Of a stretch of 64,000 nt of DNA, positions 8,663-41,194 are shown in pieces (position 1 is the first letter of the stretch; each line of letters starts with the position of its first letter). Under the pieces are notes generated by a model. It made no database searches and was not told where the DNA came from. It saw only the letters and a program-made list of their open reading frames with translations. The stretch lies in contig DATKRZ010000103.1 in the NCBI GenBank assembly GCA_035531955.1, positions 11,972 to 75,971 of the forward strand. The letters are read 5' to 3'. Position numbers and translations under genes: made by a program. Origin of the DNA: Acidimicrobiales bacterium. GTDB lineage: Bacteria > Actinomycetota > Acidimicrobiia > Acidimicrobiales > RAAP-2.

Positions 8663-9301
8663 TCATTCGCCCGGGTCCACCCCGAGCGCGGGGAGGCAGA
8701 AGCGCAGGATGTGCGACCTCGCCCGCTCCCGGTCCATCGGCCGGCGCTGGCGCACGTGGGGACCGGCCACGCTCCACAGCAGGTCGAAGATCGAGTAGGC
8801 ATCGGGGAACGGGTCCGTGTCGGGAAACGAGCCGTCGGCCGAACCGCGGCGGATGGCCTGGAGCAGGGGTGACACCAGCCGGTCCTGCAGGGACGCTTCT
8901 TCCGGCTCGTAGCCGACGGCCTGGCGGGCGACGGCATTGAACATGACCAGACGCTGGATCCGCTTCCGGTCATAGGCGATGGACAGGACCTCGTCGATCC
9001 ACACCCGGACCGCCTCGACGGTGGTCGGCGCCTCGCCGACCCGGCGTGCCACCTCGTCGACGTCGCCAGCGGATGCGGTGCGGAACATGGCCAGCAACAG
9101 ATCGTCCTTGGACTGGAACTGCCGGTAGAAGGCGCGTGTCGAGAGTCCGGCACGATCGAGGATGTCCTGCACGCTCGCACCCTGGAAGCCGTTGCGACGC
9201 ATCACCTTCAACGCCGCATCCATCAACTGGCTCCGCTCTGCCAGGGACTCCGGGGTCACCTGGGCAGCGCCGGAGACCGCATCGTCGGCGACCGCGGGCA
9301 C
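8663..9301 (-). CDS. TetR family transcriptional regulator
   Basis: HTH RSQLMDAALKVMRRNGFQGASVQDILDRAGLSTRAFYRQFQSKDDLL. Start is uncertain: GTG at 9301 or GTG at 9259. The long N-terminal extension in the ORF track would overlap the Rieske gene. Confidence 0.75.
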   Translation of the reverse strand: MPAVADDAVSGAAQVTPESLAERSQLMDAALKVMRRNGFQGASVQDILDRAGLSTRAFYRQFQSKDDLLLAMFRTASAGDVDEVARRVGEAPTTVEAVRVWIDEVLSIAYDRKRIQRLVMFNAVARQAVGYEPEEASLQDRLVSPLLQAIRRGSADGSFPDTDPFPDAYSIFDLLWSVAGPHVRQRRPMDRERARSHILRFCLPALGVDPGE

Positions 9302-9357
9302 CGGCAAAGGATACCGGCGAGCCGGCGGGAGTGCCCGAGCGGTGCCCCCCGGACCGT

Positions 9358-10743
9358 TCAGCCGAACAGGTGACCGTCGATGGCCCGGTGGTAGTTCCAG
9401 ATGGTCATCTCCTGTTCGGTGTTGAGGTGGTGGCCGTCGTAGCCGCGCGAGTGCAGGCCGGCGGTCACCTCTGACATGTTGGAGAAGTCCTGGCTCAGGA
9501 TCTCGCCCACGTCGCCGTCCCGCCAGTCGTCGAAGAACCGGGGCGCGGCGGTCTCCAGCCCGTCGGCTGTCGGGAGCTCGAGAGCCTGGACGTCGAAGAG
9601 GCAGCTGTCCGGATCGGTGCCGTTCGGCCGGGCCCGGTAGGTCAGACAACACCCCATGTCGACCAGGAACACGGTGTTGGGGAACAGATGCCAGTCGTAC
9701 ATGGCCCCCTTCAGCTGCTCGTCGGTCAGGTCGGGATAGTCGATCCCCACCCGGCGGGCATGCTTTTTCCTCAGTCGCTGGTAGATGGCGTTGCCGTCCG
9801 GGCCATCGGCCCCGGCGGTGGTCACCAGCTCGCCGGCGGCGTCGAGATCCGACCTCAGGTACAGGGCCCGGAGCTCGCGCAGCGAGTATTCGACGTTCCG
9901 CTGGATGGCCCCGGGATCCGCCCGGTAGGCGGCGCGCAGGCTGGTGGAGTCGCCCTCGGGCCCGTAGCGGAAGAGGTCGGCGTGCCGGGAGTGGAGGCGG
10001 AACAGCTCGTTGAACGTCGACCCGTACTGCTCACACTCGGCGATGGTCGGCGGCGTGGCGCTCTTGTCGGCTCGCAGGAGCTGCGGATGGGTCCCGGGCA
10101 CGTGCCAGCTCTCGATGAACGCATCGAGCGCCGTCTTCCAGTTGGCGGGAAGGACGACCGACTTGTACCAGGCGATCCGCATCTCCTCGAGCTTGAAGCC
10201 GTCCAGCCGTCGCGGGAGCGGGTCGAGGAAGTCCTCGAGCGGCTCGGCGTCCGCCTTCATGGTGACGAACACCCATCCACCCCACTGCCCCACCCGGCAT
10301 TCGGGTAGGCAGAGCTCCTCCTTCGGCCGGGGCTCGAAGTGGGCGGCATCGGCCTGGTACCTGATCGATCCGTCCAGGTTCCAGCGCCACGCGTGGAACG
10401 GACAGCGGAACTCGCCGATCCGGCCCTGTCCACTCACCAGCCTGGTCCCCCGGTGCCGGCAGGCATTGAAGTACGCCTTGAGTCCCGACTCGGTGCGGAC
10501 CACGACGATCGACTGATCGCCGATCTCGAAATTCACGTACTGCCCGACCTTCTCCACCTCGTCCATCCGACAGGCGTTCAGCCAGGTCTCCGGGAACAGC
10601 CGCTCCAGTTCGAGGCCGAGGAACTCGGGGTCGGTGTAGCGGCCCTTGGGCACGAAGGCCGGGCCCAGCCGCCACCTCGGGGGCACGTCCGACCCGGACC
10701 CGTCCCTCCCGGTCGACTCCATGGTGGTCGTCTCGGTACTCAT
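9358..10743 (-). CDS. Rieske [2Fe-2S] non-heme-iron oxygenase, alpha subunit type
   Basis: Rieske motif CRHRGTRLV...CPFHAWRW and mononuclear-iron region FIESWHVPGTHP. ATG at 10743 overlaps the upstream stop (ATGA). Confidence 0.9.
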   Translation of the reverse strand: MSTETTTMESTGRDGSGSDVPPRWRLGPAFVPKGRYTDPEFLGLELERLFPETWLNACRMDEVEKVGQYVNFEIGDQSIVVVRTESGLKAYFNACRHRGTRLVSGQGRIGEFRCPFHAWRWNLDGSIRYQADAAHFEPRPKEELCLPECRVGQWGGWVFVTMKADAEPLEDFLDPLPRRLDGFKLEEMRIAWYKSVVLPANWKTALDAFIESWHVPGTHPQLLRADKSATPPTIAECEQYGSTFNELFRLHSRHADLFRYGPEGDSTSLRAAYRADPGAIQRNVEYSLRELRALYLRSDLDAAGELVTTAGADGPDGNAIYQRLRKKHARRVGIDYPDLTDEQLKGAMYDWHLFPNTVFLVDMGCCLTYRARPNGTDPDSCLFDVQALELPTADGLETAAPRFFDDWRDGDVGEILSQDFSNMSEVTAGLHSRGYDGHHLNTEQEMTIWNYHRAIDGHLFG

Positions 10744-11366
10744 CGGCCTCCACCCTCCTCGAGCCAGCCTCCGATCCGTCGGGTCAGCGCGTCGTCCCGC
10801 GCCTGTCCCTCCGCGTCCCCCGACCACTGCCAGGTGTCCGAGTCGATGCGGTGAGCGGCGAGGTGGGCCCGGAGCTCACCGAGCGCCGCGGCCCTGCTCG
10901 CGGCGGTGGCCACCAGGAGGAGACGGGGGCCGGGGCCGGCCAGTGCCGCCGGCGGCAGGAGCTCGACGTGGGCCGGCGAGGCGTCGACGCACACCACCGG
11001 GCCGACCTCGTCGGCCCGGAGGAGTCCGGCCCCGAGCGCCACCACCCCGCCCTGCCCGCACCCGATGAGCGCAGGCCGCCCGAGGGCGAGGTCGTCGAGG
11101 AGGTCGCACACCTGCACCACCGCCTTGGTCAGGGAGACGGGATCGGTCCCCTCGTATCCCGGCAGGATCCGGTACCAGCAGGTGCCCGCCACCTCCATGC
11201 CGTTGGCGGTGTGGGCGTAGTCCCCGAAGGGGGCCACCACCCGTCCCAACCCGTCGACGGCCCGTGCGACCCCGGTGAGGTCGATCGAGCCCGTTCCGTC
11301 ACCGTGCAGCACCACGACGGGTAACCCCGGAGCGGCGGAGTCGGTGTCCCGGTAGGCGAGCTTCAC
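10740..11366 (-). CDS. alpha/beta-hydrolase-fold protein (phospholipase/carboxylesterase-like) lacking the Ser nucleophile
   Basis: VVVLHGDGTGSIDL N-terminus. The nucleophile elbow reads GCGQGG where the family has GFSQGG. GTG start overlaps the upstream stop (GTGA) and its own stop overlaps the Rieske ATG. Confidence 0.7.
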   Translation of the reverse strand: MKLAYRDTDSAAPGLPVVVLHGDGTGSIDLTGVARAVDGLGRVVAPFGDYAHTANGMEVAGTCWYRILPGYEGTDPVSLTKAVVQVCDLLDDLALGRPALIGCGQGGVVALGAGLLRADEVGPVVCVDASPAHVELLPPAALAGPGPRLLLVATAASRAAALGELRAHLAAHRIDSDTWQWSGDAEGQARDDALTRRIGGWLEEGGGR

Positions 11367-13087
11367 CGCCCGGCACCCGTCCGGGGCGACGAGGCGGCGG
11401 CGTGCGCCCCGGCCAGAAATCCGAACACCAGCCCCGGGCCGATCGTCGATCCTCCTCCCGGGTAGCCCTCCCCGAAGACGCCGTCGACGCAGTTGCCGGC
11501 GCCGTACAGCCCACTGATCGGTCCCGAGGCTCCGAGCATCTGACCGTTGGTCCCGACGAGCGGACCGCTGTCGGTGTCGAAGGTGGTACCGACCAGTGAG
11601 ATGGCATGCAGCATCCCGCCGGTGTCGATCGGGTACATGAGCGGATTGGGCAAGTGATTGTCGGGCGCGGCAGGACCGTGGAAGGCGAACTCCACTGCTT
11701 TGGACCCTCGACCGAATTCACCGTCGTGACCGGCTTCCGCCATGGCGTTGAAGCGGGAGATGGTGGTGGCCAGTGCCTCGGCGAACCCCGGCACCAACCC
11801 GACCGGGCCGATGCCCGGGGGCATGGCGGCATTGGTCAGTCGGAGCCGGTCCGCCAACGCAACGGTGAGCCCGGCCACCCCGGAGCCGCTCGTCACGTGG
11901 TCGGCGATCGCCCCGGGCGGCGGGATCGGATAGCGGCCGCCGAACCGATCGGCGGTCCGCTGGTCGTAGACCATGAACATGATCCGATTGACGTACTCGT
12001 CGCCGGCGAAGGCGTGGTGCACCCGCCCTCGGGACTCGTACTCGCGCTTCTCGTCGACGGCCCGTACTCCGAGCCGGTTCACCAGCACCATGCTGTCGCC
12101 AGGAATGGCCCAGACGTCGAGTACCGAGTTGGCGTAGTCGTCGACCGCCTCGAGGACCTGTTGGTTCCACCACCCGTTGTGCATCCCCCCGAACCGGGCG
12201 CCGGCCCGGAGCCCGATGTCCACCAGGTCGCCGGTGTTGGAGGGAACCCCCGAGCCGCCGGCTATGGGACCGCGGAGGAACCGCTCCCGGAGCTCGGGGC
12301 TGTGGGCGAAGCCGCCGGATCCGAACACGACGCCCCCGTGGCACCGGATCCTCCGACATGCCCTTCCGTCATCGACGACGACACCGGTCGTCACCCCGCA
12401 CTCCATCTCCAGGTCCACGACCCGGTGGCCGAGGCGGACCTCGGTTCCCCGCCGGGAGGCGAAGGCCATGAGCTGGCGGACCAGCTCACCCCCGTTGCCG
12501 GCTCCGCCGCCGGGGGCCAACGGCTGGATGCCCCGTCCCCGCACCGCTCGATTCTCCGGGAACTCGAAGTAGTCGGGGAACATCCGGCCGTCCCAGGCCA
12601 GCCAGGGAGCCTCCATCCGCACGGCACCGATCTGGGCCAGGCCGGCCATCACCTCGGCGCCCCGGTCGTAGTACGTCTCCAGCAGGGCATGGTCGGCCGG
12701 CTGGAGACCGAGGCACGGGGAGTCCGGGTCGTAGGTGGCCGGATAGCCCACCCGGGCCATGTAGGCCAGCGCCTCCGGGCGGGGGTCTTCGATGCCGGCG
12801 GCCTGCATCACCGAGTTGGCATAGATATGGGCCACACCGCCCGAACAGGCGGTCGTCCCGCCGTGCACCGGGCCCTTCTCGAAGATGACCACCGAAGCGC
12901 CCCGGCTGAGGGCGCCGGCTGCGGCCGAGAGCGCCGCCGCCCCGCTGCCCGCGACGACGACATCACACTCCTCGGGAACCGCGGAAGGGGGGGCTGCCGG
13001 CGACAGCCGGGCCCCGGGTCGGTGGGCCAGCCCGGCCAGCGCGGCCACCCGTTCGCCCAGAGGGAGCCGGTCCGTAGGTTCGGCCAT
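11363..13087 (-). CDS. FAD-dependent oxidoreductase (KstD / fumarate-reductase flavoprotein-like)
   Basis: CDVVVAGSGAAALSAAAGALSRGASVVIFEKGPVHGGTTACSGG and C-terminal GLYGAGNCVDG...GGGSTIGPGLVFG. ATG at 13087 preceded by GGGAGGG (a TTG at 13111 is also possible). Confidence 0.85.
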   Translation of the reverse strand: MAEPTDRLPLGERVAALAGLAHRPGARLSPAAPPSAVPEECDVVVAGSGAAALSAAAGALSRGASVVIFEKGPVHGGTTACSGGVAHIYANSVMQAAGIEDPRPEALAYMARVGYPATYDPDSPCLGLQPADHALLETYYDRGAEVMAGLAQIGAVRMEAPWLAWDGRMFPDYFEFPENRAVRGRGIQPLAPGGGAGNGGELVRQLMAFASRRGTEVRLGHRVVDLEMECGVTTGVVVDDGRACRRIRCHGGVVFGSGGFAHSPELRERFLRGPIAGGSGVPSNTGDLVDIGLRAGARFGGMHNGWWNQQVLEAVDDYANSVLDVWAIPGDSMVLVNRLGVRAVDEKREYESRGRVHHAFAGDEYVNRIMFMVYDQRTADRFGGRYPIPPPGAIADHVTSGSGVAGLTVALADRLRLTNAAMPPGIGPVGLVPGFAEALATTISRFNAMAEAGHDGEFGRGSKAVEFAFHGPAAPDNHLPNPLMYPIDTGGMLHAISLVGTTFDTDSGPLVGTNGQMLGASGPISGLYGAGNCVDGVFGEGYPGGGSTIGPGLVFGFLAGAHAAASSPRTGAGR

Positions 13088-13179
13088 TGGCGATGCCCTC
13101 CCGAGATCCAACCACCTGCCCCTGGCCCTCGGACGTTACGATATCAGCGGCGTCGAGCGTGGGAGCGGCGAGGGGGTCG

Positions 13180-13584
13180 ATGGCGAAGGTGGGGCTGACG
13201 GTAGAGGACCAGCTGGCCATCCAGCAGCTCGCGGCGCGCTACAACCACGCCATCGACAGCGGGGACGGGGCGGCGTACGCGGACACGTTCGTCGACGACG
13301 GGGTGCTCGACGCCGGCGAACTGGTGCTCGAGGGACGCACCGCCCTCCGGCGGTTCGCCTCGGCGTTCCCCGGTTCTGTCCGCAGTCCCCGCCATGTGGC
13401 GACCAGCCTCCTCATCGACGGCGGCGGCGGCGAGGCCGTGCTCCGCGCCTACGTGCAGATGTACGCCCTCGTCGGCGATCCGCCCCGGCCCACGGTCACC
13501 GCCTCGGGGACGTACACCGACTCCCTGGTCAAGCTCGGAGGGGCCTGGCGCTTCGTCCGACGGACATTCACCGCTGACGCATGA
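13180..13584 (+). CDS. SnoaL-like / NTF2-fold family protein
   Basis: LTVEDQLAIQQLAARYNHAIDSGDGAAYADTFVDDGVLD. ORF trimmed to ATG at 13180, after a GGGAGCGGCGAGGGGG purine tract. Confidence 0.72.
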   Translation: MAKVGLTVEDQLAIQQLAARYNHAIDSGDGAAYADTFVDDGVLDAGELVLEGRTALRRFASAFPGSVRSPRHVATSLLIDGGGGEAVLRAYVQMYALVGDPPRPTVTASGTYTDSLVKLGGAWRFVRRTFTADA

Positions 13585-14519: not shown

Positions 14520-14627
14520 GCGGGCTCTCCTGGTCGTGCCGATAGAGCGGCGCAGACCACTCCGCCGGTAGCCGCCTCTCCGGCGGCTGCCGGTCGGGCC
14601 ACCACAGTACTGTGCGCATCGCGCCCG

Positions 14628-14876
14628 TCACGGCCCGTCGATATACCCGACCTCCTCGCCGACCGGGTAGAGCTGGCCGGGTCGGCCGGTGATGTGGATG
14701 ACGCCCGCCGCCGGGCACTCCACCTCCATCTCCACCTTTTCGGTTTCGAGCAGGTAGAGCGGCTGGCCGGGCCGGACACGCTCGCCCTCGGCGGCCAGCC
14801 ATTCGACGATGGTGCCCTCAGCCATCGCCACGCCGGCCTGGGGGATCTGGATGGGAGTTCGCCGGTTCTCGTTCAT
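14628..14876 (-). CDS. stand-alone lipoyl-attachment domain protein (82 aa, no acyltransferase core)
   Basis: IQIPQAGVAMAEGTIVEWLAAEGERVRPGQPLYLLETEKVEMEVECPAAGV, a lipoyl-Lys context (ETEKV). Trimmed to ATG at 14876, 22 nt after the E1beta stop. Confidence 0.8.
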   Translation of the reverse strand: MNENRRTPIQIPQAGVAMAEGTIVEWLAAEGERVRPGQPLYLLETEKVEMEVECPAAGVIHITGRPGQLYPVGEEVGYIDGP

Positions 14877-14898
14877 CGCCGTGGTCGGTGGCCCGGCG

Positions 14899-15918
14899 TC
14901 AGCCCGGCCGGGCCAGGGCACGGATCCGCTCGGCGATCCGATCCCGGTCGGGATAGTGCAGTTTCTCCAACTCCGCCGCATAGGGAACGGGGGAGTATGC
15001 CGCGCCCAACCGTTCCACCGGAGCCGACAGCCGGCCGAAGAGGTCATGGGACACCATCGAGGCGATCTCGGCCCCAGGTCCGGCGAACTCGGTGGCGGCG
15101 TGCACGACGAGCACCCGGCCGGTCCGGGACCCGCTGGCCAGGATGGTGTCCTTGTCCAGCGGCACCAGGGTCCGCACGTCGACGACCTCGACGCTGGTTC
15201 CCTCAGCGGACAAGGCGTCGGCTGCGGCCAGCGCCTCGGGGACCTGCCAGCCCCAGGTCACCACCGTCACGTCGTCGCCCGCCCGCTTCACGTCGGCGAC
15301 ACCGAGGGGGATCTCGAACCTTCCCGGCGGTACGGGTCCCCGGGTGAACAGCAGCGACATCGTCTCCATGAAGATGCAGGGATCGTCGTCGAAGATGCAC
15401 GAGTACAGGAGGCCCTTGGCCTCGCGGGGCGTGCTCGGAACCACCACCTTCAGACCGGGGATGTGCATCATCCACGCCTCGAGCGACTGCGAGTGCTGGG
15501 CGCCGAACTGGCGGCCGCCGCCGACCGCAGTGCGCAGGGTGATGGGCACGTTGGTCCGGCCCCCCGACATGTAGCGGAGCTTGGCGGCATGGTTGGCCAC
15601 CTGGTCCATGGCCACCGCGAAGAAGTCCATAAGCATCACCTCGGCGATGGGCCGCATCCCGACCAGCGATGCACCGATCGCCGCGCCCACGATGGCCTGC
15701 TCGGAGATCGGGGTGTTCCGAACCCGCTCCCGGCCGTACTTGGTCGAGAGTCCCTTGGTCCCCTTCATGACCCCGCCGATGGGGTCCTCGATGTCCTCCC
15801 CGATCACGAAGACGTCCGGATCGTCGGCCATGGCCTGGTCGATGGCCTGGTTCACCGCCTCCGACATGGTGGAGGCCGGGTCGCCCGGGGCTTCCCGCCT
15901 GCCAGGTTCCACCGTCAT
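14899..15918 (-). CDS. TPP-dependent 2-oxoacid/acetoin dehydrogenase E1 component, beta subunit
   Basis: MSEAVNQAIDQAMADDPDVFVIGEDI...RVRNTPISEQAIVGAAIGASLVGMRPIAEVM. ATG at 15918 overlaps the E1alpha stop (ATGA). Confidence 0.9.
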   Translation of the reverse strand: MTVEPGRREAPGDPASTMSEAVNQAIDQAMADDPDVFVIGEDIEDPIGGVMKGTKGLSTKYGRERVRNTPISEQAIVGAAIGASLVGMRPIAEVMLMDFFAVAMDQVANHAAKLRYMSGGRTNVPITLRTAVGGGRQFGAQHSQSLEAWMMHIPGLKVVVPSTPREAKGLLYSCIFDDDPCIFMETMSLLFTRGPVPPGRFEIPLGVADVKRAGDDVTVVTWGWQVPEALAAADALSAEGTSVEVVDVRTLVPLDKDTILASGSRTGRVLVVHAATEFAGPGAEIASMVSHDLFGRLSAPVERLGAAYSPVPYAAELEKLHYPDRDRIAERIRALARPG

Positions 15919-16940
15919 CCGGGCCCGGCCCCGCGGTCCGAGAAGACGTCGGTCAACAGCTCGTCGGGCGCAGGAGGCGCACTGGCCTTGGCCTGAACGA
16001 CTGCGGCATCCACCCGGGCAACGACGTCGCGCTCGATCTCGTCGAGGACCGCCTCTCCGATCCCCCGCTCCTGGACCAGCCACCGGCGGTAGCGGGCCAC
16101 CGGCTCGTCCGCCTCCGCCTCCGCGAACTCGGCGGGATCCATGTACTCGGTGGTCGATCCGAAGGTGTGCCCGCCCAACCGGTAGGTCATGCACTCGAGA
16201 AAGGTCGGGCCGCCGCCGGCCCGGGCCCGCCCGATGGCCTCCCCCGCGGCTTCGTCCATGGCCGGGACGCTGTTGCCGTCGACCGTCCTTGCTTCCATCC
16301 CGTAGCCCCGGAAGCGGTCGGCCAGGCTCACGGTCCTGGTGAAGTCGGCGAACCGGGTGTGCTCGCCGTACCGGTTGTGCTGGCACACGAACACCACGGG
16401 CACCTCCCACAGCGCGGCCAGGTTGCAGGCCTCGTGGGTTGCGCCGATGCTGGTGGCCCCGTCGCCGAAGTTGACCACGGTCACTTGATCGGTCCCCCTC
16501 AGCTTGCTCGACAGAGCCAGGCCCACGGCGATCGGCAGCCCACCACCGACGACCCCGGTGGTGACCATGAGCCCCGATTTCGGGTCCGAGAGGTGCATCG
16601 GCCCCCCCTTCCCTTTGGACGTCCCGGTGGCCTTTCCGCACATCTCCGCCACCAGCTCGTCGAGGGGGACCCCCTTGGCGATGCAGTCGTGGATCCCCCG
16701 ATAGGTGGTGACCATGTAGTCGTCTCGGCGCAGGTGCTCGCAGATCGCCGCCGGGATGGCTTCCTGGCCCCGCACCCCGTAGTAGGTCATCCGGAACTCC
16801 CCCGAGTTCAATCCCGCGGTTATCCGCTCCTCGGTGGACCGGATGGTGCGCATCGTCTTGAAGATGCGCAGCGCCGCATCCACCGCCGGCCCCCGGGTCC
16901 CGTTATCGGTCGGCTTGGTCCCCCCGGCAGAGGTGGTCAT
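15915..16940 (-). CDS. TPP-dependent 2-oxoacid/acetoin dehydrogenase E1 component, alpha subunit
   Basis: TPP motif GDGATSIGATHEACNLAALWEVPVVFVCQHN. ATG at 16940 overlaps the upstream synthetase stop (ATGA). Confidence 0.9.
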   Translation of the reverse strand: MTTSAGGTKPTDNGTRGPAVDAALRIFKTMRTIRSTEERITAGLNSGEFRMTYYGVRGQEAIPAAICEHLRRDDYMVTTYRGIHDCIAKGVPLDELVAEMCGKATGTSKGKGGPMHLSDPKSGLMVTTGVVGGGLPIAVGLALSSKLRGTDQVTVVNFGDGATSIGATHEACNLAALWEVPVVFVCQHNRYGEHTRFADFTRTVSLADRFRGYGMEARTVDGNSVPAMDEAAGEAIGRARAGGGPTFLECMTYRLGGHTFGSTTEYMDPAEFAEAEADEPVARYRRWLVQERGIGEAVLDEIERDVVARVDAAVVQAKASAPPAPDELLTDVFSDRGAGPG

Positions 16941-18490
16941 CCGGCTTCCCCCGCGGTCGGCACCGATCGGGCACCTCCGAGCCGGGCCCGCACCACCCTT
17001 CGATCGACCTTGCCGAAGTCGTTGTACGGGATCTCCTCCACGAACACCAATTGCTCGGGAATCTTGAAGCCGGCGATGCGACCGGCACAGAACTCCCGCA
17101 GCTGCTCGAGAGTCACCGGTTCGCGGACCACGACGGCGGCACCGACCCGGTGGCCCATCTCCGGGTCGGGGAACCCCACCACCGCCACGTCTCGGACCGC
17201 GGGGTGGGTCCGGACCACGGTCTCCACCTCCGAGGGCGAGAACTTCTCCCCTCCCCGGTTGATGGTGTCGGCCAGTCGTCCCCAGGGGTAGAGGTACCCG
17301 TCGGCGTCCTCGGACATCATGTCCCCGGTGCGGAACCATCCGGCGGGGATCGACGGGTCGTTGGCCTGGGAGTCGGGGATCACGCTGTTGTCACTCTTGA
17401 CCCAGAGCTCGCCGACCGCGCCCGTCGGTACCGACTCGTTGGTCACCGGGTCCGCAATGCGCACTTCGACGCCGGGAAGGGGGCGGCCCACCGAGGCCAG
17501 CCGCTCGGCCGAATGGTCACCGGGCCCCAGCAGGGTGATCGAGCCCAACGTCTCGGTCTGGCCGAAGGTGTTGGCCAGGCCCACGCCGGGGAGGGCGTCC
17601 ATGGCCCGGCGGATCAGCTCGGGCGACGCCGGCGCAGCCCCGTAGGTGAGTGCGGTCAGCGAGCTCAGGTCGGTGGTGGCGAAATCGGGATGCTCGAGGA
17701 TCCGGTAGAGCATGGTCGGCACGAGGAACGACGTGTTCACCCGGTGCCGCTCGACCAGCGCCAGCCACCCGCCGGCATCGAACCGGGTCTGGACCACGGT
17801 GGTGCTGCCCTTGGCCAGCGCCACCAACAGCCCCAGCATCCCGCCGATGTGCACGAACGGCACGCACATCAGGGCCACCGACGGAGCAGGCTCGACGGTC
17901 GGCGAGTAGGCGGCGATCCTCGAGGCGACCATGGAATGCGGAAGCGGCACCGCCTTCGGCGTCCCCGTCGTGCCGCTGGTGAAGAGCACCACGGCGTCCT
18001 CTTGCGGGGCGGGATCGAAGACCGGTGCGCCCTCGGGGTGGTGGTCGGACGCCAGCTCCCCGAGCCCGAGGACCACGCGCTGTCCGGCCTGGCGCAGCAC
18101 GTCGGCATAGGCGGCCCCGGCCACCCCGATCGGAGCCGACTCCACCACCTCCATCAGCACGCCCACCTCGTCGGCGGTCAGGCGGGGGTTCATCAGGGCA
18201 GTCGCCGCTCCGACCCGGGCGGCACCGACCAGGGCGGCCACCGACAGCAGGCTGGCGTCGTCGACCAGGGGGATCCGCCACCCGGGCCGGACCCCGGCCG
18301 AACGGAGGGCGGCGGCAGCTTTGCGGATGGACGCGTCGAGGTCGCCGTAGGTGGTCGACGTCCCGTCGATGACCACGGCCACCCGGCCGGGATCCACCTC
18401 GGTCACTCCTTCGATGACCCTTCCGAGTGTTCTAGCCGGGGGCACGCCGGCCCCGGTCCCTCGACGTCCCTCCGTCGTCGGGACCCCCAT
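16937..18490 (-). CDS. AMP-dependent acyl-CoA synthetase/ligase
   Basis: AMP-binding LFTSGTTGTPKAV and C-terminal GKVDRRV. Start is uncertain (ATG 18490, TTG 18508, or an internal GTG). Confidence 0.85.
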   Translation of the reverse strand: MGVPTTEGRRGTGAGVPPARTLGRVIEGVTEVDPGRVAVVIDGTSTTYGDLDASIRKAAAALRSAGVRPGWRIPLVDDASLLSVAALVGAARVGAATALMNPRLTADEVGVLMEVVESAPIGVAGAAYADVLRQAGQRVVLGLGELASDHHPEGAPVFDPAPQEDAVVLFTSGTTGTPKAVPLPHSMVASRIAAYSPTVEPAPSVALMCVPFVHIGGMLGLLVALAKGSTTVVQTRFDAGGWLALVERHRVNTSFLVPTMLYRILEHPDFATTDLSSLTALTYGAAPASPELIRRAMDALPGVGLANTFGQTETLGSITLLGPGDHSAERLASVGRPLPGVEVRIADPVTNESVPTGAVGELWVKSDNSVIPDSQANDPSIPAGWFRTGDMMSEDADGYLYPWGRLADTINRGGEKFSPSEVETVVRTHPAVRDVAVVGFPDPEMGHRVGAAVVVREPVTLEQLREFCAGRIAGFKIPEQLVFVEEIPYNDFGKVDRRVVRARLGGARSVPTAGEAG

Positions 18491-18555
18491 CTCCCCCGGT
18501 CCGGCCAAATCCGGTCATCGGTGTCCCTCCTCGTCGACCCGACGCGGGCCGGGCC

Positions 18556-19761
18556 TCAGTCTGTCGGTTCGCTGCCGACCACGCCGACGAAGCTGACGCA
18601 CTCTCCGGGGCCACCGCCGAGGTTGTGGGTCAGACCCAGGGTGCGCCCCGGGTCGGCCACGGTGGCGATCTGGCGCTCCGACGGCGCCTTCCGCCGCAGC
18701 TGGAGCCAGCACTCGAACAGCATCCGCAGGCCTGATGCGCCGATCGGGTGGCCGAAGCTCTTGAGGCCTCCGTCGGGATTGACCGGGAGCTCGCCGTCCC
18801 GGTCGAAGGTCCCGGCCAGTACCTCCTTCCACGCAGTGCCCCGCTCGGCGAAGCCGAGGTCCTCCATCAGGACCAGTTCGGTGGGAGTGAAGCAGTCGTG
18901 GACCTCGGCCATGGCCAGTTGGGACCGGGGATCGGTGATCCCCGCCTGCCGGTAGGCGTCGGCCGCCGATCGGACCACCTCCTCGAAGCTGGTGTAGTCG
19001 TACTCGGGGTCGATGATCCCGGCCGCCGGACCGGCGACGAAGCTCAGGCCTTTGACATAGAGGGGCGAGTCGGTATAGCGGGACGCGTCCTCGGTCCGGC
19101 ACACCACCACCGCGGCGGCACCGTCACTGACGCCGCTGCAGTCGAAGACGCCGAGCTGCCCGGCCACCAGCGGCGACGAGGCGATCTTCTCCATCGAGAC
19201 CCCGCTGCGGAACTGGGCCCTCGGGTTGACGGCACCGTTCTGGTGGTTCTTGAAGGCGATCCGGGTCATCACCGCCTTCAGCTCCTCGGGATCGACCCCG
19301 TACTTGTGGGCGTACGCGGGCACCAGAAGCGAGAAGACTGCCGGGGAGCTGAGGCCGGCGTTGGTCCCGTCGCCGACCTGGCGGATACCGGTGAGCCCCG
19401 AGTAGCCGGAGTCCTTCAGCTTCTCCACCCCGACGGCCATGGCCACGTCGTAGGCGCCGGATGCCACCGCGTAACAGGCGTTGCGAAACGCCTCCGAGCC
19501 GGTGGCGCAGAAATTCTCGACCCGGGTCACCGGCTTGTAGTCGATCTTGAGCGGCTTGGACAAGGTGAGCCCGGACTGGCCCGAGCCCATGGTCCCCAGC
19601 CAGAATGCGTCGACGTCCCCGAGGGCGATGCCGGCCGACCGGGCGCACTCGGTGGTGGCGTCGGTCAGGAGGTCGTCGGTGCTCTTGTCCCACAGTTCGC
19701 CGAACGGGGTGCAGCCCATCCCAACGATGGCCACCCGGTCACGAATCCCTCTACTGGCCAC
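18556..19761 (-). CDS. SCP-x/lipid-transfer-type thiolase (nucleophile Cys present)
   Basis: VAIVGMGCTPFGELW and VENFCATGSEAFRNACYAVASGAYDVAMAVGVEK. GTG at 19761 lies 1 nt after the upstream stop, with GGGAGAGGGAGG just upstream. Confidence 0.88.
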   Translation of the reverse strand: MASRGIRDRVAIVGMGCTPFGELWDKSTDDLLTDATTECARSAGIALGDVDAFWLGTMGSGQSGLTLSKPLKIDYKPVTRVENFCATGSEAFRNACYAVASGAYDVAMAVGVEKLKDSGYSGLTGIRQVGDGTNAGLSSPAVFSLLVPAYAHKYGVDPEELKAVMTRIAFKNHQNGAVNPRAQFRSGVSMEKIASSPLVAGQLGVFDCSGVSDGAAAVVVCRTEDASRYTDSPLYVKGLSFVAGPAAGIIDPEYDYTSFEEVVRSAADAYRQAGITDPRSQLAMAEVHDCFTPTELVLMEDLGFAERGTAWKEVLAGTFDRDGELPVNPDGGLKSFGHPIGASGLRMLFECWLQLRRKAPSERQIATVADPGRTLGLTHNLGGGPGECVSFVGVVGSEPTD

Positions 19762-19762
19762 T

Positions 19763-21259
19763 TCAGCCTCCCTCTCCCCCGCCCACCTCGGCGGGCACCA
19801 CCCCTCCGACCTGCTCGCCCCGGTCATCGATCCGGTCGGAGACCGGTCGTGCCTTCCAGAAGTAATTATGCACACCTTGGGCGCTGTAGAACCGACGGAA
19901 GGTCATCTCCACCCGGGTTCCGATGGCCAGTGCCTCCGGGTCGACGTCGGTCATCTCCCCCCGGTACCTGCCGCCGCCGTCGAAATCGATGACCGCGCCG
20001 ACCATCGGAGGGGAGAGGCTGAAGGCCAGCCGGTCCACGGTGAAGGTGGCGACCGTCCCCCGCACACCGGCCAGCCGTTGCGGCTCCATGTGGTCCACCG
20101 ATCGGCACGACAGGCAGACCCGGGTCGGGGGAAGGTGGACGAACCCGCACTCGAGGCAGCGGCTGGCGCCGAAGCCGAACTTCCAACCCTCGTTGCGCCG
20201 CATGGCGGGAGCGTCGGGTCGTTCGGGGTCGGGTCGGCGCGGTGGCTCCCGCCGGAGGTGCCCGCGCCAGGTCAGGTACACCGCGTAGGGCAGGTCGCGA
20301 CGCCCCTGGTCGACTGAGGCGGCCACCTCCATCATCCCCTCCCGGCGCCGTGCCTCCTGTACCCCGACCAGTGCGGGAGTGGTGCGGAAGACCACCGCGT
20401 CGGCGCCGTCGCCCACTCCCAGGACCACGACGGCCTGGTCGGGCCCCGCCCTCTCCAGCACCTCGGCCAGGCCGGTGGCGGCCTGGGCTGCGCCAAGGTT
20501 CCCGATCAGCGAGGTGTAATCGGTGGCCACCCGCTGGGGCGCCACGCCGAGTGTCTTGCGCAGGGTGCCGACGGCTCGGGCATGCAGCCCGGCCACCACC
20601 AGGTGGTCGATCTCGTCGACGGTCAGGCCGGCATCGGCGAGCGCCCCGGAAAACGCCGCCCGGCCCAGTGGCACCAGGGCCTCCTCCCCGAACCGGTCCT
20701 CCCACTGGCGCGAGGCGGAATCGCCCGGGACCCTCCAGCGGTCGAGGAATTCGTGGGTGACGGAGGCGTGGCCGAGCACCTCGGCCACCGCCCCCTCCGG
20801 TGCGAAGACGAAGGCGGCGGCTCCGTCCCCCCCCTGGCTCTCCTCGGCTCCCCCAGCCAACCCGGTACGCAGGTCGGAGACCACGGCGATTGATGCGTGG
20901 CGCTCGCCCTCCAGGGCGGCCAGGCGCATGGCCGCCCAGCCCGAACGGACTGATCCGCAGAGGTCGTAGGCGCCGGTGGACGGGGGGAGGCCCAGGGCGG
21001 CGTGGATGGTGGAGGCGTTGGTCTTGTCCAGGTAGGCCGGATCCGGAGTGGAGAAGAAGAGGTCATCGGGGACCGGCACCCCGGCCGGCTGCAACGCCCG
21101 ACGGGCGGCCTCCACGCCAAGGGTGGTGGTGTCCTCGTCGTAGGACGCCACGGCACGGGTGCCGCGGCCGGGCGTGGTGCCGAATGCGACGCCGATGGAG
21201 GCCCGTTCGAGACGCCAGTACGGGAGGTAGGTGGCCCACGACACGATCCCGGAGGCCAT
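19763..21259 (-). CDS. HMG-CoA-synthase-like (thiolase superfamily) domain fused to a C-terminal DUF35 Zn-ribbon/OB-fold domain
   Basis: N-terminus IVSWATYLPYWRLERASIG...ASYDEDTTTLGVEAARRAL, then YDLCGSVRSG and IGNLGAAQA. C-terminal CLECGFVHLPPTRVCLSCRS followed by an OB-like GTVATFTV...GAVIDFDGG. Confidence 0.85.
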   Translation of the reverse strand: MASGIVSWATYLPYWRLERASIGVAFGTTPGRGTRAVASYDEDTTTLGVEAARRALQPAGVPVPDDLFFSTPDPAYLDKTNASTIHAALGLPPSTGAYDLCGSVRSGWAAMRLAALEGERHASIAVVSDLRTGLAGGAEESQGGDGAAAFVFAPEGAVAEVLGHASVTHEFLDRWRVPGDSASRQWEDRFGEEALVPLGRAAFSGALADAGLTVDEIDHLVVAGLHARAVGTLRKTLGVAPQRVATDYTSLIGNLGAAQAATGLAEVLERAGPDQAVVVLGVGDGADAVVFRTTPALVGVQEARRREGMMEVAASVDQGRRDLPYAVYLTWRGHLRREPPRRPDPERPDAPAMRRNEGWKFGFGASRCLECGFVHLPPTRVCLSCRSVDHMEPQRLAGVRGTVATFTVDRLAFSLSPPMVGAVIDFDGGGRYRGEMTDVDPEALAIGTRVEMTFRRFYSAQGVHNYFWKARPVSDRIDDRGEQVGGVVPAEVGGGEGG

Positions 21260-21287: not shown

Positions 21288-22838
21288 TCAGCGCCCGACG
21301 CCGGCCAGCTGGGCCGCCCGGGCCTTCAGCGCCGACCGGTCGGGCTTCCCGATGCCCAGCAAGGGTATCTCGTCGACGTGGACGACCAACTCGGGAGTCT
21401 TGAACCGGGCCACGCCCTGTGCGGAAAACCATTGCCGGCACTCTTGCACGTCGAGACGGCCGTCCCCCACCACGAATGCCGCCACCCGCTCCCCCAGGCG
21501 CTCGTCCGGGCACCCGACCACCACGGCCTGGCGAACGCCCGGATACGCCTCCAGCAACCGCTCGACCTCCGCCGACGCGATGTTCTCCCCCGCCCGGATG
21601 ATCACGTCCTTGCACCTCCCCACGATGGTCAGCCAGCCGTCGGCATCGAGGGTGCCCAGGTCACCGGTGGCGAACCAGCCGCGGCGCACGGCCTCCGCCG
21701 TCTCCGACGCCTCGCCGTAGCCGACGAAGAGCTCGGGGCCCCGCAACAGGACCTCTCCCTGCTCACCGGGCGGGACACTCCGGTTGCTCAGCGGGTCCAC
21801 CACCCGGATGACCGCGTCGCCGACGCTGCGCCCGTCGGTGTCACGCGCCTTGTCGGGACCGTCGGCGGCGGTGGACGTGGTCACGGTGGGCGCCTCGGTC
21901 GACCCGTAGGTGCGCTTCACCGTCGCCCCCAGCCCCCGGCGGGCCGCATCGATGAACTCGGGGGTCACTCCCATGCCCCCGCAGGAGACCACCCGCAGGC
22001 TGGACAGTCGAGCCGGCGGGCCGGCCACGTCCATCATGTCGAGGAAGAGGGTCGGTGGACCGATCATGAACGAAACCGAGTGCTCGCCGGCCAGCCGCAC
22101 TCCCGCCTCGGGGTCCCACCTCTCCATCAGCACCACGTTCATGGCTGCGGCCCCCGGGACGAGCACGGCGTTCAGCAGTCCCGAGACGTGGGCCAGGGGC
22201 GAGGGCATGAGAGCCACGTCGGCACTCGAAAGGGCATGGGCCCTCACCATCGAGCGGGCCTTGTAGGCGAGGCCCCGGTTGGTGTGGAGCACGGCTTTGG
22301 GATGCCCGGTGGAACCCGAGGTGAACAGGACCACCGCCACGTCGGCGCCCCGCCCGGCTCCCGTCGCCACCGGGTGGCAGGCCAGCAGCTCGCCGAGGCG
22401 CCCGTTTGCGCCGCGCACTCCGATCGTCCCCTGGCGCTCGGCCAGGGGCATGCCCGGGGCGGCGAAGGACGCCGTCGGCCGGAGGGACTCGACCATCCGC
22501 CCCACCTCGGTCGGCCCGACCTGGTGGTGGATGGGGGCAGCCACCGCCCCGCACCGCCAACAGGCGCGGAACAGGGCGATCGCCTCCCACCAATTGGGGA
22601 GTTGCCAGGTGACGACGCTCCCCCTTCGGACGCCGAGCGACCGGAGCCCGCCCGACAGCGCGGCCACCACCCGCTCCAGGGCGGCCGCGTCGAGCCGGGC
22701 CTCTCCGTCGACGATGGCCGGGCCGGACGGCGGACGGCGGGACGACAGGAGCTGGTCGAGCGTCGGGACATCCCACGCGCCCCCGGGGCGCAGATACCGC
22801 GTGGCCTCGGCCTGGCGGTAGGTCGGTCGGAGGTTCAC
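21288..22838 (-). CDS. AMP-dependent acyl-CoA synthetase/ligase
   Basis: VVLFTSGSTGHPKAVLHTNRG. GTG at 22838 overlaps the upstream crotonase stop (GTGA). Confidence 0.88.
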   Translation of the reverse strand: MNLRPTYRQAEATRYLRPGGAWDVPTLDQLLSSRRPPSGPAIVDGEARLDAAALERVVAALSGGLRSLGVRRGSVVTWQLPNWWEAIALFRACWRCGAVAAPIHHQVGPTEVGRMVESLRPTASFAAPGMPLAERQGTIGVRGANGRLGELLACHPVATGAGRGADVAVVLFTSGSTGHPKAVLHTNRGLAYKARSMVRAHALSSADVALMPSPLAHVSGLLNAVLVPGAAAMNVVLMERWDPEAGVRLAGEHSVSFMIGPPTLFLDMMDVAGPPARLSSLRVVSCGGMGVTPEFIDAARRGLGATVKRTYGSTEAPTVTTSTAADGPDKARDTDGRSVGDAVIRVVDPLSNRSVPPGEQGEVLLRGPELFVGYGEASETAEAVRRGWFATGDLGTLDADGWLTIVGRCKDVIIRAGENIASAEVERLLEAYPGVRQAVVVGCPDERLGERVAAFVVGDGRLDVQECRQWFSAQGVARFKTPELVVHVDEIPLLGIGKPDRSALKARAAQLAGVGR

Positions 22839-23752
22839 CGGCCCGGGACAGGTCCCTCCACCAGGTCCGGAGTCGCCATTCGCACCGGTGGGGCATCCTT
22901 CCAATTGGGTATCCCGTCAGCGGGCTCGGCCACCGGATACTTGCTCTCATGGATCTCCGCCCAGTGGGAGTGGTTCAACTGGTGGAGGGTGAAGCAGGCC
23001 TGCAGGGAGTTGTAGAAGCCCATGTTGTCCACCGTCTGGTTCACCGACTCCTTGATCATCAGTGCGGTCATGGTCGGTACCTGGGCGATCCGGCGAGCGT
23101 AGGCGAGGGTCCGCTCCGACAGTTCGGCCGCGGGGAAGACCTTGCTCACCATCCCGAGCCGGTGGGCCTCGTGGACATCGATGGCGTCGCCGGTCAGCAT
23201 CATCTCCTTGGTGCGTCGCGGCCCGAATTCCCACGGGTGCCCGAAGTACTCCATCCCGCACATCCCGAGGCGGGTGCCGACGACATCGGCGAAGTACACG
23301 TCGTCGGCGGCCACGATCAGGTCGCAGGCCCACATCAGCATGAGGCCGGCCGAGTACACCGTGCCCTGCACCTGGGCCACCGTGATCTTCCGCAGATTGC
23401 GCCACCTCATCGTGTTCTGGAAGTAGTAGTGCCACTCCTGGAGCATGCGGGCCTCGGCACCCTTGCGGGTGGCGCCGTTGATGGTGGCGGTGCGGTGCTG
23501 GCCAGGGCCGGGCTCACGCTCGGCCCTGGCCTCCTTGGACCCCATGTCGTGGCCCGAGGAGAACAGCGGCCCCACCCCACCCAGGATGACCACCCGCACC
23601 TTGTCCTCCTCTTCGGCCCGGCCGAACGCGTCGTCGAGGTCCACCAGCAACCCGCGGTTCTGGGCGTTCCGGGTGTCGGGCCGGTTGAGCAGGATGCGGA
23701 CCACCTCGCCGCCCTCCAGCTCCTCGTACGTCACGTACCTGTAGTCAGTCAT
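22835..23752 (-). CDS. enoyl-CoA hydratase/isomerase (crotonase) family, long form
   Basis: VVRILLNRPDTRNAQN...VVILGGVGPLFSSGHDMG. Paralogous in layout to the 13641..14519 gene. Confidence 0.9.
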   Translation of the reverse strand: MTDYRYVTYEELEGGEVVRILLNRPDTRNAQNRGLLVDLDDAFGRAEEEDKVRVVILGGVGPLFSSGHDMGSKEARAEREPGPGQHRTATINGATRKGAEARMLQEWHYYFQNTMRWRNLRKITVAQVQGTVYSAGLMLMWACDLIVAADDVYFADVVGTRLGMCGMEYFGHPWEFGPRRTKEMMLTGDAIDVHEAHRLGMVSKVFPAAELSERTLAYARRIAQVPTMTALMIKESVNQTVDNMGFYNSLQACFTLHQLNHSHWAEIHESKYPVAEPADGIPNWKDAPPVRMATPDLVEGPVPGR

Positions 23753-23891: not shown

Positions 23892-24083
23892 TCAGTCGGC
23901 GATGCTCAGCGCGACCTTGGGGCAGGACCTCACGGCCATCTCGACCTTCGATCGAAGGCCTTCGTCCGGCTCCTCGGCGAGGACATGGAGCTCGTCGTCG
24001 TCGCTCACCTCGAACACCTCGGGGGCTGCGGCCATGCAAAGGGCGTTGGACTCGCACCGGCCCCGGTCCACGATCACCCGCAT
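23892..24083 (-). CDS. small ferredoxin (3-Cys pattern CxxNxxC...CP)
   Basis: C-terminal 63 codons of ORF 23892..25664: MRVIVDRGRCESNALCMAAAPEVF...VRSCPKVALSIAD. ATG at 24083. Confidence 0.8.
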   Translation of the reverse strand: MRVIVDRGRCESNALCMAAAPEVFEVSDDDELHVLAEEPDEGLRSKVEMAVRSCPKVALSIAD

Positions 24084-24278
24084 GGTCGGAGTGTACCGAA
24101 TGTCCTGTACCGGACCACCGTCGGCTCTTACTCCTCCCAGCGAAAACGGCATTTCCACTGGAGGCGCCGCGCTGGTAGTATGGCCACGGCTGCCGGGGAC
24201 CACCGGGAGCCAGGATGCATCACCCCCCGCCGTTCCGGCCGTGTTCGGGACCGGCGGCACAGCGAGCACAGGAAGGCG

Positions 24279-40658: not shown

Positions 40659-40723
40659 CGACAGGGAAGCTAACAGAACCGACCGGCGCGCGACACCGTG
40701 GCCGGCGCCGCCGGGACGCCGGT

Positions 40724-41194
40724 TTGGCTAGCATCCGGCCGGTGTTCGCAAACGGCCCCGCCATCCGACTGCTTCCCCGGCTCGATGCCGACAACCGGTT
40801 CTTCTGGACGGGGGGAGGAGACGGGACCCTGCGGTTCCTGCGGTGCCGATCGTGTCGTCAGTTCATCCACCCACCGGTTCCACGTTGCCCGGCCTGTCTC
40901 AGCGACAGACTGGGCCCGGAACCGGTCAGCGGGCGCGGCACGGTCCATTCGTTCACCGTCAACCACCAGGCTTGGATCCCGGGGTCGGACCCGTATGTGA
41001 TCGGTCTGGTCGCCATCGACGAGCAGCCGGACGTGCGCCTGATGACCAACCTCGTCGACTGCGAGCCCGACGACACCCTGATCGGCCGCGCCGTCGAGGT
41101 GACCTTCGAACACAGCGAAGACGTGTACCTGCCTTTGTTCCGACCCGCATCGACCCTGCCGGACGACCCGTCGGCCACCGGCGGTGGGCAGTGA
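40724..41194 (+). CDS. DUF35 Zn-ribbon/OB-fold protein
   Basis: FWTGGGDGTLRFLRCRSCRQFIHPPVPRCPACLS...GRGTVHSFTVNHQ. Start is uncertain (TTG at 40724). Confidence 0.8.
   Translation: MASIRPVFANGPAIRLLPRLDADNRFFWTGGGDGTLRFLRCRSCRQFIHPPVPRCPACLSDRLGPEPVSGRGTVHSFTVNHQAWIPGSDPYVIGLVAIDEQPDVRLMTNLVDCEPDDTLIGRAVEVTFEHSEDVYLPLFRPASTLPDDPSATGGGQ

Follow-up and report, generated by a model that had tools for sequence, protein, structure and literature searches.

We identified, in 64,000 nucleotides of DNA from a soil Acidimicrobiales bacterium (contig DATKRZ010000103.1), a gene module in which a thiamine pyrophosphate (TPP)-dependent E1alpha/E1beta pair is encoded beside a stand-alone lipoyl carrier protein of 82 residues (Lip), with neither an E2 catalytic domain nor an E3 (dihydrolipoamide dehydrogenase, Lpd) in the same stretch. 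We refer to the whole 64-kb stretch as the window, and positions are given in its coordinates. The arrangement is real and widely conserved, and it is apparently an uncharacterized, "unbundled" form of the 2-oxoacid/acetoin dehydrogenase complex. In textbook lipoyl-dependent dehydrogenases, the E2 core carries the lipoyl arms, and channeling on this scaffold is seen as the reason for which such complexes exist. The module and its proteobacterial sisters, in which E1alpha, E1beta, Lip, and the E2 catalytic domain (E2cat) are four proteins, suggest that the same chemistry can be carried out with free components.

The window has a G+C content of ∼70%; genes were called by third-position GC (GC3), and family searches followed. 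All three genes of the module lie on the minus strand. E1alpha (15915 to 16940; 341 residues) matches PF00676 (1.9e-62), and its TPP motif, GDG-x27-N, is located at residue 159. Its His258 (YRLGGH) aligns with the histidine of the YRYHGHS and YRYGPHS motifs in solved E1alpha structures and also with H271alpha of G. stearothermophilus E1p. E1alpha fails the equivalog cutoffs for pyruvate dehydrogenase (PDH) E1alpha, scoring 264 bits against the NCBIfam model PDH_E1_alph_y, below its cutoff of 394 bits. E1beta (14899 to 15918; 339 residues) matches Transket_pyr (1.3e-41) and Transketolase_C (1e-35) and scores above the cutoff of NF006667 (329 bits). It retains the cofactor-activating glutamate, and its His142 (GAQHSQ) aligns with H128beta of G. 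stearothermophilus E1p. H271alpha and H128beta of that enzyme have been implicated in reductive acetylation of the lipoyl group (PMC2663715).

The Lip gene (14628 to 14876, minus strand) starts 22 nt past E1beta. A lipoyl domain (PF00364, 3.7e-14) spans residues 8 to 73 and fills the 82-residue protein, with the lipoyl-lysine, Lys47, within ETEKVEMEV. In an alignment of 21 homologues, Lys47, which sits at the tip of the domain, and 18 other positions are invariant. Among NCBIfam models, that of the AcoC lipoyl domain fits Lip best (PRK14875, 8.4e-18), and models of the biotin carboxyl carrier protein (BCCP) reach only ∼1e-5. Lip matches PF00364 alone, with no match to GCV_H (PF01597), and no peripheral-subunit-binding domain (PSBD; E3_binding) was found in Lip or in any Pfam scan of the window ORFs. 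Since the carrier motif, the TPP motif, and both reductive-acylation histidines are intact, we infer with good support that E1 would load Lys47 of Lip. As the original prediction had stated, ATGA overlaps couple E1alpha to E1beta and to the acyl-CoA synthetase gene upstream, and the partner of the E1 pair consists of a lipoyl domain only.

Is an E2 or an E3 encoded elsewhere in the window? All high-GC3 ORFs of the window (those with coding-type composition) were scanned against Pfam, which revealed neither a PF00198 (2-oxoacid_dh) domain nor a dihydrolipoamide dehydrogenase. When six-frame ORFs of at least 40 residues were searched by phmmer with E. coli AceF and Lpd, the lipoyl domain was the sole match. 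An E2-catalytic-domain profile was also built by jackhmmer, starting from a closer E2 catalytic protein and drawing on at least 14 catalytic domains from retrieved loci; it had zero matches in the window. The same searches for E2 and Lpd did find both proteins at canonical loci, so that the absence of E2 and E3 noted in the original prediction held with working positive controls. No E2 core is covalently joined to the lipoyl domain either: the Lip ORF stops after 82 residues and is followed by a crotonase gene, no E2 similarity was found in any of three frames between 13600 and 14900, and the spacer between the two genes (14520 to 14627) holds no coding E2 remnant. Because E3 is commonly shared between complexes and encoded elsewhere, the missing linked E3 is unremarkable.

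The module is conserved well beyond the window. Homologues of Lip form 55 clusters in a large protein collection, all of 65 to 99 residues. A scan of species-representative genomes yielded 80 loci, and ∼65 genomic loci have a stand-alone Lip ORF of 72 to 87 residues, which adjoins E1beta in nearly all of them, usually less than 200 nt after it. Among the 80 loci, every Lip match of at least ∼59 to 62 bits is such a stand-alone ORF, except for one that is N-terminally cut at a contig edge (L067); lower-scoring matches are the N-terminal domains of full-length E2 proteins of 400 to 650 residues. The window itself has a Lip in this size range beside E1beta, an E1alpha within the clade described below, and no fused E2. 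We then used a set of 50 nonredundant loci, those with a stand-alone Lip and an E1alpha of at least 300 bits against the window protein. Within 10 kb, an E2 catalytic domain or Lpd was present in 0 of the 50. The loci contained an AMP-binding ligase (88%), a crotonase (ECH; 78%), a Rieske oxygenase (56%), a KstD-like flavoprotein (50%), a thiolase (50%), and an HMG-CoA synthase (HMGCS)-like protein (38%).

The closest relatives are Acidimicrobiales metagenome-assembled genomes (MAGs) whose Lip is 90 to 91% identical and whose gene order is the same. In one of them (L008; Lip 90% identical), the order is shared over 20 kb, and in another (L007), over the recovered downstream half. We call Acidimicrobiales loci with this order, L008 for example, type A. 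They start with a divergent Amidohydro_2 gene, followed by ECH-ligase-HMGCS/DUF35-thiolase-ligase-E1alpha-E1beta-Lip-ECH, then by a SnoaL-like gene on the opposite strand, and then by KstD-like-208-residue protein-Rieske-TetR-acyl-CoA dehydrogenase (ACAD)-SDR-family III CoA-transferase. Other Acidimicrobiales variants retain E1alpha-E1beta-Lip with different neighbors. A crotonase gene follows Lip in most Acidimicrobiales loci, a thiolase gene is linked to the module in type A and type C Acidimicrobiales loci and in Marinobacter, and in two loci (L056 and L057) a ligase gene comes directly after E1beta. Gene order is thus conserved in dozens of genomes, which was one of the checks proposed with the original prediction.

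Outside the Acidimicrobiales, Nocardia jiangxiensis and Nocardia miyunensis have the order TetR, then Rieske-ferredoxin-FAD_binding_2-E1alpha-E1beta-Lip, and a plasmid of Streptomyces sp. NBC_00564 has the Nocardia order followed by a patatin-like gene, so that Rieske genes accompany the module in these genera too. The module is also present on Sphingobium plasmids, and a FAD_binding_2 gene lies beside it in Nocardia, Streptomyces, and Sphingobium alike. On Thermus thermophilus plasmids the order is E1alpha-E1beta-Lip-TRAP transporter. The gene after Lip therefore varies by lineage (crotonase, patatin, a 141-residue protein of unknown function, TRAP transporter, Rieske gene, and others), and the lack of a universal downstream gene argues against one dedicated in-cluster replacement of E2.

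Two observations on individual loci are added here. On one Thermus thermophilus plasmid (L089, 6050 to 8231), the three genes overlap, Lip has 80 residues, and the trio lies directly upstream of the TRAP transporter in a sugar-acid-like context. In four MAG contigs of the Microflora Danica set (L003, L005, L025, and L048), many cluster genes are split into two to seven consecutive fragments, as is E1beta in L003; in these long-read assemblies the breaks are probably indel errors rather than signs of pseudogenes, and they distort automated gene calls.

Proteobacterial relatives of the module do encode the missing domain, as a separate protein; these split-E2 operons seem to be uncharacterized. 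On a Paraburkholderia plasmid, the stand-alone Lip gene is followed by a gene for a 250-residue protein annotated as "2-oxo acid dehydrogenase subunit E2," which is the E2 catalytic domain alone, with a readable DHRVINGA motif. Close homologues of this E2cat-only protein form at least 120 clusters, nearly all of 234 to 269 residues and with PF00198 as their sole domain (one homologue of 383 residues adds an E3-binding domain); the named organisms among these clusters are all Proteobacteria. In Pseudomonas umsongensis and Marinobacter, the order is DUF1302-BNR-MMPL-E1alpha-E1beta-Lip (76 residues)-E2cat (251 residues), with DUF1329 next in Pseudomonas umsongensis. E2cat-only ORFs were located at 9252 to 10004 (L091), 9001 to 9759 (L093), and 9001 to 9756 (L094) of their loci, in each case after E1alpha-E1beta-Lip (76 residues) and within clusters for an AmeABCD-like transporter. 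A Micavibrio locus has a separate E2cat-only ORF as well.

How are these E1 enzymes related to that of the window? In a neighbor-joining (NJ) tree, one clade unites the E1alphas encoded at stand-alone-Lip loci of Acidimicrobiia, Nocardia, Streptomyces, Sphingobium, Acidobacteriota, and Proteobacteria, and the split-E2 sequence of Paraburkholderia is nested within it. E1alphas encoded with a full-length E2 lie elsewhere in the tree, as does an AcoA example. Two Lip-only sequences are also placed outside the clade; one of them is that of Thermus, which suggests that the E2-less arrangement of Thermus arose independently. The proteobacterial operons thus share with the window the E1alpha clade (Paraburkholderia), a Lip of ∼76 residues right after E1beta, and, in Marinobacter, a nearby thiolase/ACP_syn_III_C pair and ECH gene (together with a MaoC hydratase). 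They differ from it in having a discrete 250-residue PF00198 protein and an AmeABCD-like DUF1302/BNR/MMPL/DUF1329 transporter, neither of which the window has. A fully unbundled version with four proteins thus exists in the family, and the window holds the version without a catalytic protein in the cluster. Since operons of the same clade encode a discrete E2 catalytic protein, the family can run canonical E2 chemistry with unfused parts, and by analogy the transferase of the window module may be encoded elsewhere in the genome.

We favor, with a probability of roughly 45%, the reading that this is an unbundled, noncomplexed, lipoyl-dependent module for oxidative C-C cleavage that works with a trans-acting E2-type catalytic domain and the general Lpd. 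In such a mechanism, an E1alpha2beta2 enzyme with TPP would decarboxylate a 2-oxoacid or cleave an alpha-ketol or alpha-diketone intermediate and would reductively acylate the lipoyl group on Lys47 of the free carrier. The carrier would diffuse between enzymes, like the glycine cleavage H-protein, rather than swing from an E2 core. Its acyl group would be passed to CoA by an E2-type catalytic domain encoded outside the cluster, either a discrete catalytic-domain-only protein like that of the proteobacterial sister operons or the housekeeping E2, and the cell's general dihydrolipoamide dehydrogenase would reoxidize the dihydrolipoyl carrier. The acyl-CoA would then be processed by the neighboring crotonase, acyl-CoA dehydrogenase, and thiolase enzymes.

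This preference rests on the discrete catalytic protein of the sister operons, on the lack of a universal neighbor, and on a known case of lipoyl use in trans. Glycine cleavage provides the logic of a free carrier: the H-protein is a small lipoyl carrier that receives its load from a decarboxylase, gives it up to a separate transferase, and is reoxidized by the shared L-protein/E3, all without a complex. The likeness to Lip is one of logic, that of a small free lipoyl carrier, as the H-protein belongs to PF01597 and works with a pyridoxal phosphate-dependent P-protein, whereas the window pairs PF00364 with a TPP-dependent E1. Actinobacteria also supply a lipoyl-lysine in trans to the succinyltransferase domain of OdhA (PMC10415282). 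In this mixed PDH/ODH supercomplex (OdhA/KGD with AceF), the lipoyl-lysine and the catalytic domain are on different polypeptides, as they would be here, which shows by analogy that Actinobacteria can tolerate uncoupled lipoyl and catalytic domains. The two cases differ in that OdhA joins its catalytic domain to E1o while the lipoyl domains lie within the full E2p, whereas the window Lip stands alone.

Several points weigh against the trans-acting transferase. It is an assumption: no E2 catalytic-domain gene was found for any actinobacterial relative (20 kb per locus) or in the 64-kb window. A housekeeping E2 would need to accept a foreign lipoyl domain and probably a bulky acyl group. Loss of E2cat in 50 loci, together with linkage of an AMP-binding ligase in 88% of them, could mean that the acyl-lipoyl group is resolved otherwise. 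In addition, the E1alpha tree that joins the window to the split-E2 operons is an NJ tree without bootstraps.

The genes around the module supply the candidates for such a different resolution. Upstream of E1alpha on the minus strand lie genes for an acyl-CoA synthetase (AMP2; 16937 to 18508, exact start codon uncertain; AMP-binding, 5.8e-71, and AMP-binding_C), an SCP-x/Ltp-type thiolase-like protein (18556 to 19875; Thiolase_C_1 and Thiolase_N; NF004810 at 587 bits, above cutoff), an HMGCS-like domain fused to DUF35 (19763 to 21259; ACP_syn_III_C, zf-ChsH2, and OB_ChsH2_C, the last two being the zinc ribbon and OB fold), a second acyl-CoA synthetase (AMP1; 21288 to 22904; AMP-binding, 5.2e-63), and an enoyl-CoA hydratase-family protein (22835 to 23752; ECH_1, 1.2e-34). 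The HMGCS-like/DUF35 protein matches the HMGCS model PRK04262 at 1.1e-38, under the model cutoff. The hydratase-family gene is the first of the operon, a position kept in type A loci. Beyond it, an Amidohydro_2 gene (23985 to 25487, plus strand; PF04909, 3.4e-21) is divergently transcribed; it marks the operon boundary in type A loci and is also present in the Nocardia and Streptomyces clusters. No terminator-like site was found between 13000 and 25000, which is consistent with one long operon, to which both AMP-binding enzymes and the thiolase/HMGCS-like-DUF35 pair belong together with E1 and Lip.

Downstream of Lip, after a gap of 108 nt, lies the gene for a crotonase-family protein of subfamily PRK08290 (13641 to 14519, minus strand; ECH_1, 1.1e-26), whose nearest solved structures are the uncharacterized mycobacterial ECHs 3OME and 3T3W. 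Where canonical enoyl-CoA hydratase has its two catalytic glutamates, this protein apparently has Ile and Leu. A gene for a SnoaL/NTF2-like protein follows on the plus strand (13087 to 13584; GC3, 0.86), whose same-position homologues in related loci carry PF13577 (SnoaL_4). On the minus strand come a KstD-like FAD_binding_2 flavoprotein (11363 to 13111; PF00890, 1.5e-37), whose top NCBIfam matches are 3-ketosteroid-delta1-dehydrogenase models, all far under cutoff, and then a conserved 208-residue protein (10740 to 11366) and a Rieske oxygenase alpha subunit (9358 to 10827; Rieske and Ring_hydroxyl_A). A TetR regulator gene lies further downstream. The spacer between Lip and the crotonase gene is predicted, on the minus strand, to fold at −60 kcal/mol (z = −2.7 versus shuffles) and contains a perfect 7-bp GC hairpin.

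The 208-residue protein has no Pfam or NCBIfam match. It resembles an Abhydrolase_2-type alpha/beta-hydrolase without a nucleophile: in an alignment of 19 homologues, the nucleophile elbow GFSQGG has become G[CWSR]GQG[GA], with the serine replaced by an invariant glycine. Further conserved motifs are GDY, GME..G.CWYR, and AVVQ..DL. The protein may be a pseudo-hydrolase or an accessory subunit.

The main alternative to the trans-acting transferase is that enzymes of the cluster, and no E2, resolve the acyl-lipoyl carrier, with Lip as a true carrier for non-E2 enzymes; we regard this as possible but less likely. In a first route, a hydrolase-type enzyme would free the acid (in Acidimicrobiales, the crotonase or alpha/beta-fold protein; in Streptomyces, patatin; in Nocardia, a thioesterase or alpha/beta-hydrolase), and the coupled AMP-binding ligase would reactivate it to the CoA ester. 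In a second, the thioester would be taken over directly, either by the thiolase/HMGCS-like pair at its active-site cysteine or by CoA on the crotonase. E2cat is present in 0 of the 50 loci, compared with 88% for the AMP-binding ligase and 78% for ECH, and the ligase overlaps E1alpha at the ATGA junction in the window and directly follows E1beta in L056 and L057. A patatin gene beside Lip in Streptomyces, genes for a TesB-like thioesterase and an alpha/beta-hydrolase near Lip in Nocardia, the thiolase/HMGCS-like pair that accompanies the module in Acidimicrobiales and Marinobacter, and a crotonase of an uncharacterized subfamily that apparently lacks the hydratase glutamates would all fit. However, no partner is universal and the gene after Lip is lineage dependent; the alpha/beta-fold protein has no nucleophile and no similarity to the AcoC hydrolase domain; hydrolysis followed by ATP-dependent reactivation would waste the thioester; and the proteobacterial relatives have kept a canonical E2 catalytic protein. 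The Streptomyces patatin, considered as a partner in its own right, was rejected, as it has no homologue in any other locus.

The original prediction had held that a noncanonical acceptor or transferase would be needed and had named the two adenylate-forming enzymes and the thiolase/HMGCS-like pair. Such an acceptor is possible and is one of two live options, but the need for it does not follow from the missing E2, since proteobacterial operons of the same clade encode a discrete E2 catalytic protein. The candidates are indeed encoded in the operon, but their linkage to the module is not universal (AMP-binding, 88%; thiolase, 50%; HMGCS-like, 38% of loci). In the boldest version, Lip would be a diffusible acyl carrier that E1 loads with an acyl group cut from an alicyclic (terpenoid- or steroid-like) intermediate and that hands it to cluster-encoded non-E2 enzymes, the actinobacterial lineage having lost the proteobacterial-type E2cat. 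We consider this version unlikely; its receivers would be a thiolase/HMGCS-like-DUF35 complex, the glutamate-less crotonase, or a hydrolase with the coupled AMP-ligase. If true, it would represent a lipoyl-based carrier-protein logic analogous to that of the ACP and PCP pathways.

Could Lip serve as something other than an acyl carrier? The main activity of E1 might be that of a TPP lyase or decarboxylase with an aldehyde or ketone as the released product, and Lip might be a redox mediator or regulator rather than an acyl carrier to CoA; for example, Lip could hand electrons to the neighboring FAD_binding_2 flavoprotein. The FAD_binding_2 stop codon overlaps the E1alpha start in Nocardia and Streptomyces, the gene is also found in Sphingobium and in the window, and E3 was found at none of the 50 loci. 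Nevertheless, this explanation is improbable: both reductive-acylation histidines are conserved, the split-E2 relatives imply acyl transfer to CoA, and KstD-like genes occur in just 50% of loci. To our knowledge, no FAD_binding_2/KstD-like enzyme is a disulfide oxidoreductase.

A biotin carrier for a carboxylase, unrelated to E1, is very improbable: PF00364 does span biotinyl as well as lipoyl domains and BCCP models match weakly (∼1e-5), but Lip has ETEKVE in place of the (A/V)MKM of biotinyl domains, fits E2/AcoC lipoyl models far better (8.4e-18), and is encoded by a gene that constantly adjoins E1beta, and Pfam scans found no carboxylase or carboxyltransferase gene in the window. The possibility that the 82-residue ORF is an artifact (a piece of a full-length E2 frameshifted by a sequencing error in the spacer, as the original prediction had cautioned, or a decaying remnant) has as its sole support the coincidence that the Lip and crotonase ORFs are in frame with each other, with one TGA and 36 codons between them, and is refuted by the short length that Lip keeps across 55 protein clusters and at ∼65 loci, which come from independent assemblies and from cultured strains, by the 19 invariant positions that include the lipoyl lysine, and by a spacer whose length varies among relatives; the three-frame reading, the six-frame E2 profiles, and the crotonase as downstream ORF, with no E2 similarity in any frame, exclude it for the window itself.

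We compared the module with characterized lipoyl-dependent systems. Like PDH of G. stearothermophilus and human branched-chain 2-oxoacid dehydrogenase (BCKDH), it has the E1 fold, the TPP motif, the catalytic histidines, and a lipoyl-lysine domain. It differs from both in lacking an E2 core, a PSBD, and a linked E3, so that there is no scaffold for a multienzyme complex. The module is therefore structurally outside the classical PDH/BCKDH family, although the E1 step is alike.

Acetoin dehydrogenase (AcoA/AcoB/AcoC/AcoL) is another close system. It too has a heterotetramer-type TPP E1alpha/E1beta in a catabolic operon, its AcoC lipoyl domain is the best family match of Lip, and KEGG-based JGI names for E1alpha orthologues of the module alternate between acoA and pdhA, with many acoA. 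AcoC also illustrates that the acyltransferase partner need not have the classical E2 fold, as Terrarubrum AcoC consists of a lipoyl domain, a PSBD, and an alpha/beta-hydrolase domain. The window Lip, in contrast, is separate, with 82 residues and no PSBD or fused transferase; an AcoC-type hydrolase domain and AcoL/E3 were not found in the window; and the window E1alpha lies outside the branch of the lone AcoA example, a single uncharacterized AcoA in the NJ tree. We considered a split AcoC, with the alpha/beta-hydrolase transferase as a separate protein, and rejected it, as a search with the C-terminal domain of Terrarubrum AcoC had no match in the window or at type A loci; the 208-residue protein was rejected for this role because its nucleophile is missing. 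The module is not an AcoABC system, as it has neither a fused nor a separate AcoC-type transferase.

E1-type TPP enzymes also load lipoyl groups outside central metabolism. In glycolicacyl-ACP formation for quinocarcin and naphthyridinomycin, E1/E2/ACP systems donate C2 units by means of a lipoyl-bearing E2 acyltransferase and an ACP acceptor in nonribosomal peptide synthetase (NRPS) clusters. The window differs in having no E2, ACP, or NRPS and in its catabolic context. In the literature, we found no description of an E1alpha/E1beta pair with a stand-alone lipoyl protein or of the function of E2cat-only proteins. An archaeal survey lists single-domain lipoyl proteins as a class (PMC3904984), and the "lipoyl carrier protein" of Pelobacter is GcvH-like. 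Automated annotation labels the parts generically, for example, as "lipoyl domain-containing protein." A search for fusions of the Lip clade gave a ranking dominated by multilipoyl E2 proteins, whose domain scores add up.

On what substrate might the module act? The window encodes families typical of steroid and terpenoid catabolism: two P450s, the KstD-like flavoprotein, the Rieske oxygenase, the SnoaL-like protein, Ltp-type thiolases, DUF35, a family III CoA-transferase, and many ACADs, among them a fused double ACAD. The proteobacterial relatives adjoin genes for an AmeABCD-type transporter, a transporter of hydrophobic compounds that has been linked to monoterpene metabolism (PMC6394551). 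The context thus suggests a hydrophobic alicyclic, terpenoid, or steroid-like substrate class, and E1 could act on a 2-oxoacid or an alpha-ketol/alpha-diketone made by the oxygenase and the flavoprotein. The actinobacterial estrogen (aed) cluster was considered as a known context and rejected, as it has no E1 genes.

The family is large and phylogenetically broad, and it appears to carry out lipoyl-dependent chemistry with free components, within catabolic clusters for hydrophobic compounds. If so, glycine cleavage would no longer be the sole paradigm of a free lipoyl carrier, and the module would provide a handle on a ring- or chain-cleavage step in the degradation of terpenoid- or steroid-like compounds by abundant soil Acidimicrobiales. 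It would also raise the question of how the actinobacterial version, which has no E2, unloads its carrier, and by which enzyme. Cultured carriers of the family exist (Nocardia jiangxiensis, Nocardia miyunensis, Streptomyces sp. NBC_00564, Paraburkholderia, Pseudomonas umsongensis, Marinobacter, and Thermus thermophilus), so the question is directly testable.

Other genes of the window were noted in passing. The fused double ACAD is a 778-residue ORF (44829 to 47165, minus strand) with two tandem acyl-CoA dehydrogenase units, as seen in two N-terminal and two C-terminal ACAD domain matches; it looks like the two partners of a heteromeric FadE/ChsE-type steroid ACAD pair joined into one chain. 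A 356-residue ORF (52668 to 53738, plus strand; GC3, 0.88) without a Pfam match immediately precedes an ACAD gene and a thiolase-like gene. A GMC oxidoreductase is paired with a Gluconate_2-dh3-type small subunit (38446 to 40727, minus strand), with a zinc alcohol dehydrogenase and an FGGY kinase adjacent. Among the catabolic genes, there is also a pair encoding a Phd/YefM antitoxin and a PIN-domain toxin (51911 to 52711, plus strand) and a second, solitary PIN-domain gene (59051 to 59458, plus strand).

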